Program-made: the position numbers and the translations under genes
The notes under the pieces: model-generated
Databases searched by the model: none
Seen by the model: the letters and a program-made list of their open reading frames with translations, nothing else
What the model was told of the DNA's origin: nothing
Source of the DNA: Patescibacteria group bacterium
GTDB lineage: Bacteria > Patescibacteriota > Minisyncoccia > Phycocordibacterales > PALSA-1337
Length of the DNA stretch: 64,000 nt
Assembly (NCBI GenBank): GCA_038065415.1
Contig: JBBTRA010000006.1
Location: 15,262 to 79,261 of the forward strand
Reading direction: 5' to 3'
In this document: piece by piece, positions 3,018 through 62,361 of the stretch
Layout: each line of letters opens with the position of its first letter
How positions within the stretch are numbered: position 1 is the stretch's first letter

Positions 3018-4109
3018 TTAGTATTCGTGTTCAGCGATCACATACTTCTTCATTTTGTTGTACAGCGTTTGTCGGCCAATACCAAGGTGCTGTGCGCTTA
3101 CAAGCTTGTTGCCCCCGAATTGGTTCAGTGCTTGTACGATCAGGACTCTTTCCGCTGACTCCATGACGGTTAAGGGGATGATACGGTCGATTCCGCTGAT
3201 TGGTTGTCCAAACTGCGTATTCGGTCGAACTCTCAGACGGAGATCTTGTGGTTCGATCGTTCCGGTACCATTGGAGTAGCGTATGCCGCGCATGATGCAG
3301 TTACGCAGTTCGCGCACATTACCTGGCCAACAATGACTCTTGATGAGCTGTTCTGTTTCAGCGCTCAAGATTTTCTGGCGATTGGAGTACTGGTCGACGA
3401 AGTGGCTGGCCAAACGCACCAGGTCATCCACCCGCTCGCGCAAAGAGGGAACCTCGATGACGAACTGCTCGATGCGGAAGTATAGATCTTCTCGGAACAT
3501 GCCTTCATCGACCATCTTGTGAAGATCACGGTTGGTTGCTGTGATCAGGTTGAAGTCCGAATGAATTCTGGTACTGCCACCGACGCGCTGGAACTCGTGA
3601 TCTTGCAGAACACGGAGCAATCCCGCCTGCAAATGGAGAGGTAACTCTCCGATTTCATCGAGGAATACAGTACCTCCATCCGCAAGCTCAAAAGCACCTT
3701 TGCGCTGGAGGATTGATCCGGTGAATGCGCCCTTTTCATGCCCAAACAGTGCGCTTTGCATCAATTCGGGTGTCAGATTGGCGCAGTCAACTATCGATAG
3801 GTGAGCCCTCCCACGCTTTCCTCGCTGGTGCAGAGCTTTTGCTATGAGTTCTTTGCCGGTACCGTTCTCCCCCAGAATCAGCACAGCCTCGACATCAAGG
3901 GATTGGTCCAATTGACGAACCACTTCCTTCATTTTTGAATCACGGCACTCCCTGAGAAGTTCATACGGAGTAAGACCATGATCTATTTCTGGGAGATGTT
4001 GAGGCTCTTCTACGGGCGCTGGTTGAGGTGATGGTTGAAGTTCTGGCGGTGGGGCTGGCTTGGGAGGCGGCTCATGCATCCCCAGGCATATAAATGGTTT
4101 CTTCTCCAT
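3018..4109 (-). CDS. Sigma-54-dependent transcriptional activator (AAA+ plus Fis-type HTH) with no receiver domain and a Pro-rich N-terminus
   Basis: Walker A GENGTGKE, GAFTGS motif (ESALFGHEKGAFTGS), C-terminal HTH QHLGIGRQTLYNKMKKY. Likely start is ATG 4109, preceded by AAGGAGAG; the track ORF extends to a TTG at 4175. Confidence 0.8.
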   Translation of the reverse strand: MEKKPFICLGMHEPPPKPAPPPELQPSPQPAPVEEPQHLPEIDHGLTPYELLRECRDSKMKEVVRQLDQSLDVEAVLILGENGTGKELIAKALHQRGKRGRAHLSIVDCANLTPELMQSALFGHEKGAFTGSILQRKGAFELADGGTVFLDEIGELPLHLQAGLLRVLQDHEFQRVGGSTRIHSDFNLITATNRDLHKMVDEGMFREDLYFRIEQFVIEVPSLRERVDDLVRLASHFVDQYSNRQKILSAETEQLIKSHCWPGNVRELRNCIMRGIRYSNGTGTIEPQDLRLRVRPNTQFGQPISGIDRIIPLTVMESAERVLIVQALNQFGGNKLVSAQHLGIGRQTLYNKMKKYVIAEHEY

Positions 4110-43706: not shown

Positions 43707-44068
43707 GGGGATGCCAGGCATAGACAGTCGACCATGTTCGTTCGTGCGGCGCGAGCACCGTTATCTCGTAAATCTGACGGAAACCCTAAATGCTAAAACA
43801 ACCTCACCGTATTTCACGGCCAAGGACTTTGCATTCGTCCCTGCATAAGGGATGCGCTCGCCCCGGGGGATTCTGACTCGGGGGCCGGGTGTTATAACCT
43901 GAATGTAGGACTGATAGAGCTTCTCGCCCTATTGTCCGAATAAAAGAGATCGTGAGTATGCGTTTTGTTTGCTTTCTTAACATACTCATTAAACTTCAAG
44001 GCATTCTACCGCCGTAGAATCGTTCGACGCATATCGATTGCACGCGAGTTCAATTCTCGCCATCTCCA
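43707..44068 (+). ncRNA. ssrA: tmRNA (SsrA)
   Basis: 5' GGGGATG pairs with 3' CATCTCC (44061-44067), including a G3-U wobble; discriminator A at 44068. 3' tRNA-like domain GCACGCGAGTTCAATTCTCGCCATCTCCACA closely parallels E. coli GGACGCGGGTTCAACTCCCGCCAGCTCCACCA. 5' GTCGAC D-loop analogue. Immediately downstream of smpB. Confidence 0.85.
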
Positions 44069-44195
44069 CAATAATTGACTTACATAGTCAAGAATATTAA
44101 GATACAGTCAGAAGTTATTTGGTGCGGACTTTCAGGTCTTAAGTGACTCCGTTTGAGATCTAGGAGTTCGTATCAAATTCAACCAAAAAGGAAGT

Positions 44196-48027: not shown

Positions 48028-48101
48028 CCGCCCTTAGCTCAGTTGGTTAGAGCACAGAGCTTATACCTCTGGGGTCCTTGGTTCGAATCCAAGAGGGCGG
48101 A
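48028..48101 (+). tRNA. tRNA with anticodon UAU (tRNA-Ile reading AUA)
   Basis: Cloverleaf: acceptor ccgccct/agggcgg, D-arm gctc..gagc, anticodon stem cagag/ctctg with loop cTTATac (anticodon T48062-A-T48064), T-arm cttgg-ttcgaat-ccaag, discriminator A; CCA not encoded. Confidence 0.8.
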
Positions 48102-48161
48102 CAGGTTTTTGCACAGCTTCTATTGTTGACACGGTGATCTACATGGTAGAATAGAACCTAC

Positions 48162-58286: not shown

Positions 58287-59108
58287 TTATTTTGACACTT
58301 TGTTCCTGAATAGGTGAGCGGCTAGGGGTATACAGATCGCTATAATCGCTAGGCACCAGATGAGCGTCGCCCATCCGTGGTTGCCGAGAGGCGTGCCGAC
58401 CATAAGTGCACGCATGGCTTCAATCACATGTGTGACTGGCTGATTTTCGGCGAAGATGCGCAGGTACTTCGGCATGGTCTCAGTGGGCACGAATGCGGCG
58501 CTTGCGAAGGTTAGAGGGAAAACAAGGACGAATCCGAACCACTGCACCGCTTCGACACTCTTGGCGAGGAGTCCTATGACCGCAGAGAGCCAGGAGAAGG
58601 CGAAGGTGAACAGGAGAAGCAAGCCGAGGATCATGAGCCAATCCGTGAAAGAAGCAACGGGTCGGAAGTCGATGAATAGGGCGACAATGATCATGACGAT
58701 AGACGAGAGCACGTTCCTCACCAGGTCAGCGACGACGTGACCCGTGAGGACTGCGGAGCTCAGGATGGGAAGTGATTTGAGGCGATCGATGATGCCTCTC
58801 TGGACGTCAGTGGCTACAGAGAGGGAAGTGGTCGTGGCTCCAAATGCTGCAGTTTGAATAAGAATACCAGCGACGAGGAAGTTCACATATGAGGTTCCTC
58901 CGGTGTCGATCGCCCCACCGAAGACATAGCGGAAGAGCAGCATGAACATGATTGGCTGCATCACGATGGACAGAAGCTGATCCATGTTGCGGAAGATGTG
59001 TCTGAGACTCCTCTGAATCAGTACGAAGGAATCAGAAAATCCAGACACGAAAGCAGAGTGATGCTTGGCGTTCTCTTCTTTGGGTATTGAAAGCAACGTG
59101 TCGTTCAT
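58287..59108 (-). CDS. ABC-2 type transporter permease
   Basis: 273 aa, six TM helices, ABC-2 topology; downstream of an ATPase gene. Confidence 0.75.
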   Translation of the reverse strand: MNDTLLSIPKEENAKHHSAFVSGFSDSFVLIQRSLRHIFRNMDQLLSIVMQPIMFMLLFRYVFGGAIDTGGTSYVNFLVAGILIQTAAFGATTTSLSVATDVQRGIIDRLKSLPILSSAVLTGHVVADLVRNVLSSIVMIIVALFIDFRPVASFTDWLMILGLLLLFTFAFSWLSAVIGLLAKSVEAVQWFGFVLVFPLTFASAAFVPTETMPKYLRIFAENQPVTHVIEAMRALMVGTPLGNHGWATLIWCLAIIAICIPLAAHLFRNKVSK

Positions 59109-59119
59109 ATGCGTGTATG

Positions 59120-60094
59120 TTATGATTTTGCACTCTCAGCCTGCTCAAGTGTCGCGGCGTGACCAGTAAGGCGAAGGAATACGTCATCGAGTGTAGGCTT
59201 TTGTATCGACATTGACTCTATAGCGATGTTTGCGCCGCTTACGGTATCGAGGATTTTCTTGACGTCTTCTACGCCACCCTCGATAGGTATAACGAGTACA
59301 TGGCGGTCGTCTTGTTCGACAATCGAACCGGAACCATTGATCTTGAGGGCCTTGTCAGCATCCTCAGGACGGGAAAATACGAGTTCGAGTCTGTCGCTAC
59401 CGACTTTTGCCTTGAGCTCGTCGGCTGTCCCCTCGACTATCACTCGACCGTGATCAATCACTGCAATCCGGTCGGCAAGCTTGTCCGCTTCTTCGAGATA
59501 TTGGGTGGTGAGAAGGATAGTTGCCCCGTCCTTCATGAGGCGTTCGATAACATTCCACATGGCTATTCTCGAGCGAGGATCGAGACCGGTAGTTGGTTCA
59601 TCGAGGAAAAGTACTGGAGGTGTTGCGACGAGAGAGAGGGCAAGATCGAGCCTCCTCTTCATGCCGCCGGAATATGTCTTGGCAATCCTCTTGCCGGCAT
59701 CGACGAGGTCGAACTGCTCCAAGAGCTTCTTTGCCCTGCGAGTGCTCTCTTCTAGTCCGAGGTGGTAGAGCCTTCCCATCATGATGATGTTCTCTTCGCC
59801 GGTGAGGTATTCATCGATGGCAGCGTATTGCCCTGTGAGACCGATGAGACTGCGTACTTTGCGGGAATCCTTTACCACGTCGAAGCCTTCTACGTATGCG
59901 TTACCTCCAGTAGGTTTGAGGAGGGTAGAGAGGATGCGTACGGTCGTGGTCTTGCCGGCGCCGTTTGGTCCAAGGAGTGCAAGCATCTTGCCCTTGGGCA
60001 CTGTAAGATCGAGTCCCTCAAGGACTTTGAGATCCTTGAAGTTTTTCTTGAGACCTTTCACTTCTATCGAGTTTTTTGTAGAGGTGGTTGCCAT
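59120..60094 (-). CDS. ABC transporter ATP-binding protein (DrrA-like)
   Basis: Walker A GPNGAGKTT, signature YSGGMKRRL, Walker B LFLDEPTTGLD. Confidence 0.85.
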   Translation of the reverse strand: MATTSTKNSIEVKGLKKNFKDLKVLEGLDLTVPKGKMLALLGPNGAGKTTTVRILSTLLKPTGGNAYVEGFDVVKDSRKVRSLIGLTGQYAAIDEYLTGEENIIMMGRLYHLGLEESTRRAKKLLEQFDLVDAGKRIAKTYSGGMKRRLDLALSLVATPPVLFLDEPTTGLDPRSRIAMWNVIERLMKDGATILLTTQYLEEADKLADRIAVIDHGRVIVEGTADELKAKVGSDRLELVFSRPEDADKALKINGSGSIVEQDDRHVLVIPIEGGVEDVKKILDTVSGANIAIESMSIQKPTLDDVFLRLTGHAATLEQAESAKS

Positions 60095-60243
60095 ACTAGT
60101 GTGTGTCTATTTATATCATATCGAGGTGCGACTCGACTATTGTTGAACGTCAAAAATTGTGGTAGAAACATTACCTTTTTGATCGCATACTTCTTGTCTA
60201 TTTGTATATCGCGATTTACGCTGCATATACTTTATTTTTTCTG

Positions 60244-60330
60244 CGGAGACGGTGGGATTCGAACCCACGAGGGAGTTTCCCCCCTAACACCTTAGCACGG
60301 TGCCGCTTTCGACCACTCAGCCACGTCTCC
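60244..60330 (-). tRNA. tRNA-Ser (anticodon GCU), type II with a long variable arm
   Basis: Minus-strand sequence GGAGACGTGGCTGAGTGGTCGAAAGCGGCACCG-TGCTAAG-GTGTT...GTGGGTTCGAATCCCACCGTCTCCG; anticodon loop gtGCTaa; acceptor GGAGACG/CGTCTCC. Confidence 0.85.
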
Positions 60331-60595
60331 GTATATTATATTTTATCTTGAACTCCTCTCTTTTGTAACCCTTCTTACATTCTTTTTCTAGCATTCGAGC
60401 TTCTTTTTCCGATGTGCAAGCCATGGATTCTAGAAGTACAAAAGGTCTTTTTGATCGGATTGAAGGCGTCTGTCCCGAATTGTGTTCGGCAAGCCTTCGC
60501 TGCATATCGTTGGTTTTACCGATATACAAACTTTCGTCTTTTGTACTTTTTAGAATGTACACGTAATGCATAGTTTGGAATTTTAATGTACTCAT
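60317..60595 (-). CDS. GIY-YIG nuclease family protein
   Basis: HYVYILKS...LYIGKTNDMQRRLAEHNSG is a GIY-YIG motif. The 3' end (..NIRRRG*) overlaps the first 14 nt of the tRNA-Ser. Start is ATG 60595 or 60571; the track start 60682 reads through a tRNA fragment and is rejected. Confidence 0.7.
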   Translation of the reverse strand: MSTLKFQTMHYVYILKSTKDESLYIGKTNDMQRRLAEHNSGQTPSIRSKRPFVLLESMACTSEKEARMLEKECKKGYKREEFKIKYNIRRRG

Positions 60596-60644
60596 GCCGC
60601 TTTCGACCCCTGCCTGCCGGCAGGCAGGACTCAGCCACGTCTCC
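60596..60644 (-). repeat. Duplicated tRNA-Ser 5' fragment (nt 1-29) interrupted by a 20-nt perfect palindrome
   Basis: Minus strand reads GGAGACGTGGCTGAGT-[CCTGCCTGCCGGCAGGCAGG]-GGTCGAAAGCGGC, identical to tRNA positions 1-16 and 17-29 with the palindrome inserted between them; abuts the GIY-YIG start codon. Confidence 0.85.
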
Positions 60645-60695
60645 AGTTCCGCCATTCTTGCACAAAACCGTATATTTATCAAAAATCACACTCTG

Positions 60696-60724
60696 TTGCA
60701 TACCATATATATCGGCTGTACAAT
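60696..60724 (+). promoter_or_regulatory. Sigma-70-like promoter TTGCAT-17-TACAAT
   Basis: TTGCAT 60696-60701, 17-nt spacer, TACAAT 60719-60724; ATG at 60751. Confidence 0.55.
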
Positions 60725-60750
60725 GGAGCCATTAATCAGCCAACACGCAT

Positions 60751-61158
60751 TTGCACACATATATGAACCCAGATACCACGCAGAACCCAGCGCCTACACC
60801 AGCACAGGAACCTACTCCTACTCCAGCGCCAGCTCCCGAATCAGTCGCTGCGCTGCCTCCGAAGCACAATACCCTCATGGCAGTACTTGCGTACATTGGT
60901 CCGCTTGTTCTCGTTTCGTACCTTACTGCTAAGGATGATTCATTTGTTAAGTTCCATATCAAGCAAGGACTTGTCCTTCTCGTGATTGAAGTCATCGTCT
61001 GGGTGATCGTTCGCATGATCTGGATGCTCTGGCCGGTTGGGCAGATCGTACATCTTGTAGTATTCATCCTCGCCATCGTCGGTATCGTCAATGTTCTGAA
61101 AGGCAGGGAGAAGGCGCTGCCGTTCGTCGGGTCATTTGCAGCGCACTTTAAGATATAG
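60751..61158 (+). CDS. DUF4870-like membrane protein with a Pro/Thr/Ala-rich N-terminus
   Basis: LAYIGPLVLVSYLTAKDDSFVKFHIKQGLVL pattern and TM helices. Confidence 0.5.
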   Translation: MHTYMNPDTTQNPAPTPAQEPTPTPAPAPESVAALPPKHNTLMAVLAYIGPLVLVSYLTAKDDSFVKFHIKQGLVLLVIEVIVWVIVRMIWMLWPVGQIVHLVVFILAIVGIVNVLKGREKALPFVGSFAAHFKI

Positions 61159-61161
61159 TCC

Positions 61162-62361
61162 GTGAAGACCGTCACCGATACAGCTCGCATCGAAGCCCTC
61201 TTCGCCCGCGCCACGGTGACGGATATCTTGCCGACCAAGGACGCGTTCACCGCGCGCCTCCTTTCTGGTGAGAAGCTCAGGATGTATATCGGTTTTGATC
61301 CTACGTTCACCTCGCTCCATCTCGGTCATGCCAAAAACCTCATGTTTCTGGAAGAGCTCCGTCAGCTCGGCCATGAGGTCATCGTACTTTTCGGTGACTT
61401 CACTGCACAGATCGGAGATCCGAGTGACAAGGCGGCAACGAGAAAGCAGCTCACTACAGAGGATGTGAAGAGAAATGTCGCCGGTTGGGTCAAGCAGGTC
61501 AAACCACTCCTTGATTTTGATGCCGCGGAAAACCCTGCGGTCATCAGATACAACTCAGAGTGGCTCTCAAAGCTTTCATTCTCTGATGTCGTCAGCCTCG
61601 CTTCAAACTTTACTGTCCAGCAAATGTTGGAGCGTGATATGTTCCAGAAGCGCCTCAAGGAGAACAACCCGATTCATGTTCATGAGTTCATGTATCCACT
61701 TATGCAGGGATATGACAGCGTTGCCATGGATGTGGATGCTGAGCTTTGTGGTACGGATCAGATTTTCAATGCGCTCGCCGGCCGTACACTCATGAAGCGC
61801 CTCAAAGACAAGGAGAAGTTCGTGGTCGCCCTCAATCTCATCGCCAACCCTAAAACGGGTGAACTCATGTCCAAGTCAAATGGTACTGGGGTTTTCATAG
61901 ACCAGTCGCCGAATGAGCTGTTCGGCTCGCTCATGGCTTTGCCGGATCCGATGATAGAGCCTTTGTTCCTCAACTGTACGCGTATTCCTATGGAAGAAAA
62001 AGATGCCCTCATGGCACTCGGTCCACGCCTCGCCAAAGCTCGGGTTGCATCTGATATTGTGAAGCGTTTCCATGGCGAGAAGGCCGCCGTTGATGCTGAA
62101 CAGGCATTCGAGAATACCTTTGCCAAAGGTGGTGTGCCAGAAGATATTCAGGAAGTGAAGTTTGCTTCAGGTGACGTACTTTCAGACGTACTTGTGAAGG
62201 CGGGTATCGTGCCGTCAAAAGCAGAGTGGCGCCGACTGATCGATGGTGGCGGTATCAAGACCGAGGATGATACCAAGATAACTGATCCGCATTTCCTGCC
62301 CAAGGAGACGATGGTGCTCAAGATAGGGAAGCGTAGGTTCGTGAAGATTGTTGTGTCTTAA
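61162..62361 (+). CDS. tyrS: Tyrosine--tRNA ligase
   Basis: Class I HIGH motif (DPTFTSLHLGH), KMSKS-like ELMSKS, C-terminal S4 domain. Confidence 0.85.
   Translation: MKTVTDTARIEALFARATVTDILPTKDAFTARLLSGEKLRMYIGFDPTFTSLHLGHAKNLMFLEELRQLGHEVIVLFGDFTAQIGDPSDKAATRKQLTTEDVKRNVAGWVKQVKPLLDFDAAENPAVIRYNSEWLSKLSFSDVVSLASNFTVQQMLERDMFQKRLKENNPIHVHEFMYPLMQGYDSVAMDVDAELCGTDQIFNALAGRTLMKRLKDKEKFVVALNLIANPKTGELMSKSNGTGVFIDQSPNELFGSLMALPDPMIEPLFLNCTRIPMEEKDALMALGPRLAKARVASDIVKRFHGEKAAVDAEQAFENTFAKGGVPEDIQEVKFASGDVLSDVLVKAGIVPSKAEWRRLIDGGGIKTEDDTKITDPHFLPKETMVLKIGKRRFVKIVVS

Follow-up and report, generated by a model that had tools for sequence, protein, structure and literature searches.

In fungal mitochondria, mobile endonuclease ORFs such as the one at atp6 of Allomyces insert at the end of a gene, bring along a replacement for its terminal segment and leave a fragment behind. 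Short mobile palindromes are known as well, among them the palindromic elements of Rickettsia and the GC clusters of yeast mitochondria. REP elements with their RAYT transposases are of the same kind (PMC2817692). In T4-like phages, the Seg proteins are free-standing GIY-YIG homing endonucleases, and SegB is found in a tRNA gene cluster (PMC2330249). GIY-YIG ORFs have also been reported from non-intron insertions in rRNA genes of the CPR (PMC11270868); that article contains neither the term tRNA nor any mention of palindromes, and the passages of it that were searched say nothing of inverted-repeat ends. Eukaryotic Slx1, another GIY-YIG nuclease, carries a zinc-finger domain at its C-terminus and depends on Slx4 (PMC7017083). 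For the UPF0213 (YhbQ/YazA-type) family, which comprises 19,290 clusters at 50% identity, we found in the literature searched neither an assigned function nor, for its bacterial members, a role in mobile elements.

In this study we analyse a locus within a stretch of 64,000 nucleotides from a Patescibacteria contig (the window), in which a UPF0213/Slx1-like nuclease gene, a tRNA fragment and a 20-bp palindrome, here called P1, occur together. Searches of the literature for the palindrome sequence, for GIY-YIG in combination with tRNA, tmRNA or terminal inverted repeats (TIRs), and for UPF0213/YhbQ returned no description of this arrangement. What we see at this locus suggests that there is a family of very small mobile DNA elements, so far undescribed, which settle at RNA genes.

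Results

Organisation of the locus

Read along the minus strand, the locus consists of a promoter-like site, tRNA nt 1-16, P1, tRNA nt 17-30, a GIY-YIG ORF and an intact tRNA-Ser(GCU). The intact tRNA (60243..60330, minus strand) has 88 nt and a long variable arm, was called by ARAGORN and matches Rfam RF00005 over its full length with 57.1 bits; it is the functional copy and lies directly downstream of the cassette. The ORF (60317..60571, minus strand) encodes 84 aa when counted from the ATG at 60571. Its TGA coincides with tRNA nt 12-14, and the last four codons together with this TGA fall within tRNA nt 1-14. A preliminary description of this DNA had placed the ORF between the intact tRNA-Ser and a second copy of the tRNA 5' end, with the end of the ORF and its stop codon overlapping tRNA nt 1-14, and ARAGORN, Rfam and the ORF list (ORF end at 60317) bear out both points.

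The second copy had been given as nt 1-29, split between nt 16 and 17 by a perfect palindrome. It is an exact duplicate and is split at this very place, but its length is 30 nt instead of 29: GGAGACGTGGCTGAGT (60629..60644, minus strand) equals tRNA nt 1-16, P1 (CCTGCCTGCCGGCAGGCAGG, 60609..60628, identical on both strands) is a perfect palindrome of 20 bp, and GGTCGAAAGCGGCA (60595..60608, minus strand) equals nt 17-30, matching 60314-60301 exactly. The description is also right in that the duplication concerns the 5' and not the 3' end of the tRNA. The 16-mer of tRNA nt 1-16 occurs only twice in the window (0.06 occurrences expected even with 2 mismatches), and P1 is single-copy in the window even with 3 mismatches, with none expected by chance. 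Between the fragment and the likely start codon lies an AT-rich spacer (60572..60594, minus strand) with no obvious Shine-Dalgarno sequence.

Ahead of the fragment, a consensus scan found the promoter-like site TTGATA-17 nt-(TG)AAGAAT (60654..60682, minus strand). The same sequence block precedes an uninterrupted tRNA at the related locus L207, and the alignment of both loci puts the GGAGACGTGGCTGAGT copy at the place of the tRNA 5' end in this empty allele. The site is presumed to be the native tRNA-Ser promoter, which would now precede the fragment, P1, the ORF and the tRNA. A weaker site, GTTACA-18 nt-TAAAAT (60340..60369, minus strand), was detected by the consensus scan only; it lies inside the 3' end of the ORF, stops 9 nt short of the tRNA and could be a second tRNA promoter. 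The scan gave 3 promoter-like sites in the region compared to 1.7 expected, so the evidence for this second promoter is weak. The cassette lies between the native promoter flank of the tRNA and the intact tRNA, and the displaced copy of nt 1-30, divided by P1, is still joined to this flank.

The insert measures ∼300 bp, and on its two sides a segment of the tRNA is directly repeated, namely nt 1-16, or nt 1-30 if the interruption by P1 is allowed for. As tRNA genes are classic integration sites, such repeats might suggest the remnant of an integrase-mediated island or prophage, or else a group I intron with its endonuclease. However, an insert of just this size, the duplication of the 5' end, the lack of an evident integrase-like ORF among the translations of neighbouring ORFs and a downstream tRNA that is complete and uninterrupted without splicing all speak against this explanation, and Rfam at E<=1 gives the tRNA alone, with no intron, in 59000-62000. 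It is effectively refuted by the anatomy and we consider it most improbable. The neighbours in the window are an ABC transporter, a small membrane protein and TyrRS. Among loci, the fragment forming the direct repeat differs in length (19-42 nt), which is unlike the result of a fixed staggered cut.

The nuclease

The ORF product matches the Pfam GIY-YIG family (PF01541) with E=2e-16, scoring 60.3 bits where the curated cut-off is 22.6, and is 100% identical to a database protein of 84 aa (P0001). In the preliminary description the end of the fragment coincides with the start codon of the ORF, which would be the ATG at 60595 and would give 92 aa. This does not seem to hold: gene callers (P0001) and homologues of ∼80 aa start at MHYVYIL, and from this comparison the true start is probably the ATG at 60571, 24 nt past the one abutting the fragment. 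Among homologous cassettes the distance from palindrome to ATG ranges from 9 to 42 nt, with the spacer sequence varying as well, and the adjacency seen in the window is probably a coincidence.

Among proteins of solved structure, the matches were 1ZG2 (E=2e-13), 1YWL (1e-11), SLX1 (1e-5), UvrC (7e-3) and I-TevI (0.025), so by sequence similarity the protein is nearer to the UPF0213 and Slx1 branches than to those of UvrC or I-TevI. Invariant in 27 sequences are V4-Y5, Y16-I17-G18, R25/R26, E29-H30-N31 and E62, of which Y5, Y16, R25/R26 and E62 presumably have catalytic roles by analogy with I-TevI and UvrC. Pfam reports the nuclease core alone in the 84-aa protein and no DNA-binding domain within this catalytic core of ∼80 aa, which makes a homing specificity for long sites doubtful. 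We rejected an Slx1 orthologue, as 84 aa leave out the C-terminal RING/PHD zinc-finger domain, and likewise membership in a defence system, for which PADLOC gave marginal partial matches only (E=1e-4 across ∼30 residues).

Most homologues stop at ..KYN[LI]/KYGL, 1-13 nt ahead of the tRNA, and reading through into the tRNA (..KYNI-RRRG*) is seen in few loci (the window, L015-L017, L054 and L061). The codons of the C-terminal KYN were also considered as a conserved TATAAT promoter, which was rejected because other loci have TACGGT and the like.

Empty and alternative alleles

The preliminary description had proposed to look for empty sites at related loci, and such sites were found. At L207, where TyrRS is 88% identical to that of the window, a flank homologous to the window's upstream flank is joined directly to a tRNA-Ser(GCU) without a cassette. 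In close relatives, the orthologous locus between infB and tRNA-Ser has four allelic states: it is empty in L261, holds an ORF-less palindrome of 30 nt in L258, the P1 cassette in L010/L011 and a LAGLIDADG gene in L260. This is presence/absence polymorphism at a conserved target, as in homing endonuclease genes. The genomic context of the window cassette differs from that of the infB group. Between the window and its relative L207 the identity of tRNA-Ser is 72%, but between the window and L020 it is 88%, in conflict with the host phylogeny, and both types of tRNA-Ser occur with and without cassettes.

The infB group is of interest in another respect. Its order of infB, cassette and tRNA is kept across genomes whose IF-2 proteins are only 47-57% identical, while nuclease identity in the same genomes is 64-74%. 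Between L010 and L011 the ORF shows 12 synonymous codon differences and 1 nonsynonymous one, a pattern that indicates strong purifying selection on the nuclease. Recent transfer between these two was rejected, since with 12 synonymous changes their protein identity of 98.8% is due to purifying selection. From these comparisons the cassette of the infB group looks vertically inherited over deep divergence under such selection. We note that vertical inheritance in this group also fits a domesticated gene, which weighs against reading the locus as a mobile cassette.

Another possible explanation is a UPF0213 nuclease, domesticated or housekeeping, whose gene and tRNA-Ser are stably transcribed together; its mobility would be ancient, and the fragment and P1 would form a conserved 5' regulatory leader. 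Such a leader could be an operator bound by the nuclease, or an RNA hairpin setting mRNA stability or translation; I-TevI, for example, represses its own promoter. The purifying selection and the deep synteny are in line with this, as are the position of P1 upstream of the start codon, on a transcript from the putative tRNA promoter, and the near invariance of P1, which does not covary and so suggests sequence-specific recognition. However, a stable leader is at odds with the four allelic states in close relatives and the empty L207, with the different context of the window, with cassettes on a viral contig and at tRNA genes of several kinds, and with the variation both in P1-to-ATG spacing and in the position of P1 within the fragment. 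The region 60560-60660 folds no better than shuffled sequences (z = -0.8 as RNA, -1.6 as DNA), and solo copies of P1 would be left unexplained. Taken together we regard this explanation as unlikely, although it deserves to be kept in mind. A structured or tRNA-like leader was rejected as well: the same region folds into the P1 hairpin alone and has no Rfam match, and the differing position of P1 in the tRNA fold makes a conserved tRNA-mimic structure unlikely.

The preliminary description had named a housekeeping UPF0213-type gene as an alternative to mobility. The gene is indeed of this type, but it behaves as a mobile cassette here, so type and mobility are not alternatives. The proposed footprint of a tRNA-targeting mobile or homing element is supported by the empty alleles at L207 and at infB|tRNA-Ser, and by the recurrence of the layout at several tRNAs and on a viral contig.

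Recurrence at other RNA genes

Matching layouts were found at ∼24 further loci, mostly in Patescibacteria genomes or metagenome contigs and in one viral contig. Their tRNAs are those for Ser, Lys, Leu and Asn, with one His locus in which P1 is interrupted. The combination of tRNA fragment, P1 and ORF is found in each of the 16 closest genome homologues, and the intact tRNA-Ser (GCU, GGA or UGA) is present in 15 of the 15 whose contig extends beyond the ORF; like these, ∼8 more distant homologues carry P1 within a fragment of 20-50 nt directly ahead of the ORF, one copy being disrupted. Despite tRNAs that differ between genomes, the fragment agrees with its own tRNA at 328/332 nt before P1 and at 233/241 after it. 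At L010, the fragment does not follow tRNA changes over short times, which counts against a mobile cassette. P1 enters the fragment at nt 8, 9, 10, 11 or 16, and in L068 after nt 31, which by locus corresponds to the D-loop, the D-stem, the nt 8-9 linker or the anticodon stem of the tRNA fold. L013 and L164 contain a second unit of fragment and P1 in tandem.

Each nuclease clade has its own characteristic DNA motif upstream of the ORF. In the sister clades, units of ∼300 bp carry this motif as TIRs around the ORF; inverted repeats of at least 10 bp were found in 27 of 36 sister-clade loci compared to 24 of 1800 shuffles, and TIRs enclosing the element are present in the sister 'CCCCCACACC' clade. 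These elements lie within genes for tRNA and 16S rRNA or adjoin those for tmRNA, and one of them is inside a 16S rRNA gene. An ORF-less copy of the sister-type repeats forms a palindrome at the tRNA position that the P1 cassette uses. Neither in the window nor in any P1-clade locus was the ORF surrounded by TIRs or by half-sites of P1; the trivial complementarity of the acceptor stem was the one exception. With no inverted-repeat pair enclosing the ORF of the P1 clade, simple transposition by its ends is not supported.

P1 as a dispersed element

The search for further copies that had been suggested showed that P1 is no local oddity but widely dispersed and an element in its own right: it occurs in at least 120 metagenomic and 47 viral stretches. 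Scans of the DNA counted ∼190 copies in 167 stretches (1.13 Mb), and in only 4 is the nuclease gene directly adjacent. The GIY-YIG nuclease is the only gene recurrently next to P1. That few P1 copies adjoin a nuclease gene, and that the window has a single P1, are observations that count against a mobile cassette. P1 is GC-rich and common to AT-rich CPR contigs and GC-rich viral contigs. Its variants include C13T and a paired change, T9/A16, found in both L012 and L043. These variants, and the fact that cassettes from many independent projects have P1 at orthologous places, led us to reject an artefact of assembly or adaptors.

Solo copies are enriched in hairpin loops (12 of 125, compared to 0.75% in controls). 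They are also nested at the centre of other P1 copies, lie in frame inside protein genes, e.g. pheS and ligA, and in one case in the variable loop of a phage tRNA. Around solo copies, exact target-site duplications of fixed length are rare and a target consensus is not clear; approximate flanking direct repeats accompany ∼10% of P1 copies as opposed to 0.8% of controls. P1 is a conserved cis-element of its cassette clade and a dispersed solo element elsewhere.

Since most copies are solo, distant from any nuclease gene and in many kinds of sequence, P1 and the nuclease might have met by chance: the tRNA 5' end would have been partly duplicated long ago, as the ORF arrived, and an unrelated REP-like palindrome without functional link to the nuclease would have entered later. 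Against this stand P1 in the fragment upstream of the ORF in all of the closest and in the more distant homologues, its entry at no fewer than six different positions in different tRNAs, and the other nuclease clades with a motif of their own at the same place. A neutral fragment and palindrome would also have decayed at these divergences, and both are intact. We therefore judge a chance association to be quite improbable.

Discussion

The most probable explanation, which we hold with some confidence, is that a minimal GIY-YIG nuclease of the UPF0213/Slx1 type forms the core of a mobile cassette, and that this cassette uses the tRNA promoter and has P1 as its cognate cis-element. The ORF would be co-transcribed with the tRNA from the tRNA promoter, and RNase P would free the tRNA. 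With the stop codon in the tRNA or at most 13 nt before it, the processed mRNA would have no usable stop, and this could limit nuclease output. P1 may be the cognate site of the nuclease, bound or cut as a symmetric duplex or as a hairpin. If P1 is equivalent to two fused element ends, this would explain why it spreads alone. The cassette itself might move by recombination initiated by the nuclease, a transfer that we infer, with tRNA sequence on both sides, the fragment upstream and the whole tRNA downstream, as portable homology. These same direct repeats would make precise loss and tandem amplification possible. A putative full-length element is the CCTGCCTGCC-ORF-GGCAGGCAGG unit. A nuclease that recognised the tRNA gene would, however, also find a target in the intact tRNA downstream, a point that speaks against the mobile cassette.

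More tentatively, and with less than even probability, the UPF0213/Slx1-like mini-nucleases might be the mobilising enzymes of an unrecognised class of ultra-small DNA elements. If so, this class would span autonomous units of ∼300 bp bounded by inverted repeats, cassettes capping tRNA, tmRNA and rRNA genes, and ORF-less derivatives of 20-36 bp that consist of two ends fused to each other. In that case few known mobile elements would be smaller than P1, and a structure-selective nuclease, opening hairpin loops or the tips of cruciforms, would move it in trans. Such opening would explain the presence of P1 in hairpin loops, in other P1 copies, in tRNA loops and in bacteria as well as phages.

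Our data provide evidence that UPF0213 nucleases drive compact selfish elements, if not generally then in Patescibacteria and in some other uncultivated lineages. If indeed such elements colonise tRNA, tmRNA and rRNA genes, the family would gain a testable function, and some odd insertions and fragments around RNA genes of the CPR would be accounted for. It would also suggest that tRNA genes are exchanged horizontally along with the cassettes, and the 20-bp palindrome would be a mobile sequence crossing phyla that could serve both as a marker and to model palindrome spread in a simple system. Annotation pipelines will mishandle the tRNA fragments, and the ORFs reading into tRNAs, that such cassettes create.

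Comparison with known systems

As in integrative elements that target tRNA genes (att sites of phages and ICEs), segments of the tRNA form direct repeats here and the tRNA stays functional; in those elements, however, the duplicated part is the 3' end, an integrase is required and the length runs to kilobases. P1 resembles the REP, Rickettsia and GC-cluster palindromes in being GC-rich and multi-copy, in occurring in intergenic hairpins and in lying in frame in protein genes. It differs from them in that it has only 20 bp and in that the one gene regularly linked to it is a GIY-YIG nuclease and not an HUH or tyrosine transposase. Among enzymes, the UPF0213 proteins BH0048 (1ZG2) and EF2693 (1YWL), the family that includes YhbQ in E. 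coli as well as YazA in B. subtilis, have the catalytic core in common with the window protein, whereas Slx1 is set apart by its zinc-finger domain and its partner Slx4, neither of which applies here.

With the rRNA insertions of the CPR our cassettes share the phylum, the nuclease superfamily and the insertion into conserved RNA genes, and one such case (L079) is a member of the nuclease family described here. The Allomyces atp6 case is similar in that a nuclease ORF comes with a partial duplication of the host gene, which stays intact with the fragment beside the ORF. There, however, the duplication affects a protein gene at its 3' end, and the fragment becomes divergent, whereas here it is a tRNA 5' end, ∼98% identical to the tRNA and split by a palindrome. 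The Seg proteins, of ∼200 aa, have a separate DNA-binding domain and do not duplicate their target, in contrast to the 80-aa core of the window protein and its cassette with a duplicated 5' tRNA fragment and a conserved palindrome. As with Seg, a GIY-YIG gene adjoins tRNA genes, is present or absent between relatives, and appears to take neighbouring tRNA sequence along when it travels.

Anatomy of the tRNA-Ser(GCU) locus

All features of the locus are read on the minus strand of the window. A sigma-70-like site, TTGATA-17-(TG)AAGAAT (60682-60654), is the putative promoter. It is followed by GGAGACGTGGCTGAGT (60644-60629), an exact match to nt 1-16 of the tRNA, by the 20-bp perfect palindrome that we call P1 (CCTGCCTGCCGGCAGGCAGG, 60628-60609) and by GGTCGAAAGCGGCA (60608-60595), an exact match to tRNA nt 17-30. 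An AT-rich spacer of 23 nt separates this tRNA fragment from an ORF with a GIY-YIG domain (E=2e-16; ATG 60571 to TGA 60317), whose last 14 nt overlap the intact tRNA-Ser(GCU) gene (60330-60243). By chance, the window would be expected to contain neither the repeat nor P1; P1 and the GIY-YIG gene each occur in it once. Direct repeats of a tRNA segment around a nuclease gene had been claimed in the preliminary description, and both repeat halves are indeed exact. The ORF start proposed there, ATG 60595, is probably wrong, as the identical database protein has 84 aa and homologues start with M-[HFY]-[YC]-VYIL. The window also carries a tRNA-Ile gene (anticodon TAT, 48028-48102) and a tmRNA gene (43707-44069, tag AKTTSPYFTAKDFAFVPA), with no GIY-YIG cassette or P1 adjoining either of them.

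Recurrence of the cassette

Homologues at 54-76% identity were found in Patescibacteria only, and the first contexts inspected had the order tRNA-Ser 5' fragment, same palindrome, ORF, intact tRNA-Ser. Scanning one genome per species with the protein as guide gave 80 loci (L-numbers denote homologous or P1-bearing loci). The layout was present in all 16 closest loci, at tRNA-Ser(GCU), (GGA) or (UGA), with the contig of one of them, L019, stopping before any tRNA. In more distant members P1 lies within tRNA-Lys and tRNA-Leu fragments (the tRNA-Leu case having two tandem P1), a tRNA-His locus (L084) has an interrupted P1, and DNA scans added examples at tRNA-Asn, at a tRNA-Lys-like gene and on a viral contig.

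The tRNAs vary between genomes, and in 22 units the fragment matched its own tRNA at 328 of 332 positions before P1 and 233 of 241 after it; in L010 two tRNA positions have changed and the fragment is unchanged at both. P1 is placed within the tRNA fragment and does not flank the ORF. It mostly sits between nt 16 and 17, but also at 8/9, 9/10, 10/11, 11/12 and 31/32, and, judged by eye, within the D-arm at about nt 20-23 in L197 and L252. The 3' limit of the fragment varies from nt 19 to 42, and at most loci the ORF stop falls between -23 and +13 nt from tRNA nt 1. L013 and L164 have a second unit of fragment and P1 between ORF and tRNA.

Several single loci show further peculiarities. In L002 (2944-2956) the tRNA fragment contains, besides P1, a GC-rich insert of 12-13 nt (TGGGCCCGAGGC, GGGCCC core) at nt 12/13. 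In L252 (820-1000), 3' of the cassette, a structured insert seems to split the tRNA behind its anticodon stem, and no tRNA is called there by ARAGORN. In L064 the GIY-YIG ORF is followed, after about 130 nt, by a group I intron (2647-2883; Rfam, 90 bits). A second GIY-YIG gene on the contig of L001 (676-975, minus) reads into tRNA-Cys(GCA) (624-696), ending ..KYNIGLIAKW*, with no obvious fragment or palindrome upstream; L261 (2918-3166) is arranged similarly.

Empty sites and allele states

Empty-site alleles had been named in the preliminary description as the test of mobility, and they exist at two loci. In L207, whose TyrRS is 88% identical to that of the window, tRNA-Ser(GCU) lacks a cassette. 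The 5' flank of this tRNA, promoter-like block included, can be aligned with the sequence upstream of the window fragment. The fragment therefore sits where the 5' end of the tRNA gene originally lay, with the ORF now between promoter and tRNA. L207 also has a divergently oriented second tRNA-Ser-like gene (3023-3110), 85 nt from tRNA-Ser(GCU), to which ARAGORN assigns the unusual anticodon ACT.

At a second orthologous locus, infB followed by a divergent tRNA-Ser, four states are found among relatives with IF-2 81-100% identical, all in homologous intergenic surroundings. L261 is empty. L258 has a perfect 30-nt palindrome (halves CCCCACCAATTAGAT and ATCTAATTGGTGGGG; 36 nt counting CCTCC/GGAGG) with about tRNA nt 2-9 duplicated (GAGGCGTG) and no ORF; it lies at 185-235 on the minus strand, upstream of tRNA-Ser(GCU) (117-206) at its 5' end. 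P1 cassettes occur in L010, L011 and L003. In L260 a 333-aa HTH/LAGLIDADG-like gene (111-1112, minus), adjoining tRNA-Ser (1-90) and infB, is directly upstream of tRNA-Ser(GCU) in the slot that the cassette takes in L010 and L011. A second LAGLIDADG-like gene lies at L260:2958-3677.

Identities of tRNA-Ser clash with the host phylogeny (window against L207 72%, against L020 88%; L011 against L002 92%, with IF-2 only 47%). The disagreement is consistent with tRNA sequence travelling with cassettes but is no proof of it, as both tRNA types are found with and without them.

The nuclease family and its motifs

The closest solved relatives are UPF0213 proteins (1ZG2, 2e-13; 1YWL, 1e-11), followed by SLX1 (1e-5), with far weaker matches to UvrC and I-TevI. 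Slx1 has been described as the founder of a family including YhbQ and YazA (PMC7017083). The nuclease profile covers 19,290 clusters at 50% identity, proteins mostly of 80-130 aa. Of the codon differences between the ORFs of L010 and L011, 12 are synonymous and 1 is nonsynonymous, and among five genomes with a common infB neighbourhood identity is 64-74% for the nuclease and only 47-57% for IF-2. These comparisons show that the ORF is functional and under selection.

DNA motifs preceding the ORF track the nuclease clades on a tree of 81 family members. P1 is the motif of the window's clade and one other, and a tRNA-Ser(UGA) clade has a 32-nt palindrome. A separate clade lies directly downstream of tmRNA genes (L037:1712-2472, L049:474-1244, L083:98-830), where the conserved hairpin motif GAAGCAGTG...GTAGC..GCGAAG precedes the nuclease. 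A large clade has CCCCCACACC, which is one arm of terminal inverted repeats (TIRs) enclosing the ORF. Such units measure 285-320 bp, have inverted repeats of 10-25 bp and were found in 27 of 36 loci against 24 of 1800 shuffles. Those in L022, L024, L027, L034, L053, L072, L085 and others (about 2450-2790) each contain a 66-75-aa GIY-YIG ORF; one lies inside a 16S rRNA gene (L079:2463-2772), and others abut tRNA ends, the repeat providing the displaced tRNA nucleotides. Several are flanked by 3-4-bp duplications. At about 300 bp these units may rank with the smallest elements that look autonomous.

The L258 palindrome looks as if two TIR arms from the GIY-YIG 'CCCCCACC' class of elements had been joined with no ORF between them, and its site is the same tRNA position as that of the full element in L082. 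P1 (CCTGCCTGCC and GGCAGGCAGG) may by analogy consist of two element ends fused together; an ORF bounded by P1 was not found.

P1 on its own

Scanning for the exact pattern found P1 in at least 120 metagenomic stretches, and a viral scan added 47, many on contigs with 60-69% G+C. Family nuclease genes numbered seven in 1.13 Mb around P1 copies, four of them directly adjoining P1 as cassettes. Only 12% of the copies without the nuclease cassette (solo P1) lie in long ORFs, compared with 36% of random positions. In 12 of 125 cases they are central in another perfect inverted repeat of at least 7 bp (0.75% in controls), and about 10% have approximate direct repeats on either side (against 0.8%). 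At several loci P1 is nested within 1 nt of another P1's centre, and some contigs have 5-6 copies. P1 is in frame, encoding ..LPAGRQ.., in pheS upstream of the FPFVEPG motif (L098:5257-5276), in a likely ligA (NAD-ligase) upstream of KIDG (L174:8498-8517) and in an 893-aa ORF (L133:4699-4718). It also occupies the variable loop of a tRNA-Met on a viral (phage) contig (L241:2239-2330), which ARAGORN still calls, with a length of 92 nt and P1 as extra arm, and the T-loop of a tRNA-Ala 3' fragment (L144). L213 has a copy related to the L241 tRNA-Met with a damaged T-arm. Two variants recur, C13T and, at two loci, the paired change T9/A16, which preserves the 6-bp hairpin CCTG[C/T]C-GGCA-G[G/A]CAGG. 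From its dispersal, hairpin centring, nesting, in-frame and tRNA-loop copies and variants, P1 therefore behaves as a mobile mini-palindrome. A viral-contig stretch with 54% G+C (L255:3900-4128) has a tandem array of ten 21-nt units with the P1 variant CCATGCCTACCGGCAGGCAGG, reading (MACLPVG)n.

Possible mechanism and relation to known elements

The gap from stop to tRNA is only 0-13 nt, so either ORF and tRNA would be co-transcribed from the promoter ahead of the fragment or the tRNA would have a promoter within the ORF, for which 60369-60340 is a weak candidate. RNase P cleavage would then leave an mRNA without a usable stop codon; in the window the ORF stop falls within the tRNA, and there is a tmRNA gene at 43707-44069. 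P1 is probably the recognition site of the nuclease, as supported by its symmetry, its invariant (non-covarying) sequence and the pairing of clade and motif; the fold belongs to a structure-selective family. The cassette would probably spread by break-induced recombination with tRNA sequence on both sides as homology, allowing entry into tRNA-Ser genes whatever the genomic context, and the direct repeats would let it excise precisely (empty sites) and form tandems by unequal exchange (L013, L164). A serious rival is a domesticated, autoregulated nuclease gene, with the I-TevI operator as the analogy for autoregulation. The nuclease consists of the core only and would have to avoid, or tolerate, cutting the intact tRNA gene that adjoins the cassette. 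The data themselves show a compact nuclease cassette that occupies the tRNA-Ser 5' end, comes and goes between relatives, is under selection and has a clade-specific cis-motif.

A survey of rRNA insertions in CPR bacteria describes GIY-YIG ORFs in non-intron insertions, judged to be outside a homing context, and does not contain the terms tRNA or palindrome (PMC11270868). The searchable literature contains neither the P1 sequence nor UPF0213/GIY-YIG genes tied to tRNA 5' duplications, tmRNA or inverted-repeat ends. The cassette/P1 system has a real chance of defining a new class of ultra-small elements; the known kinds that we rate as closest are free-standing homing-endonuclease cassettes and REP- or MITE-like palindromes.
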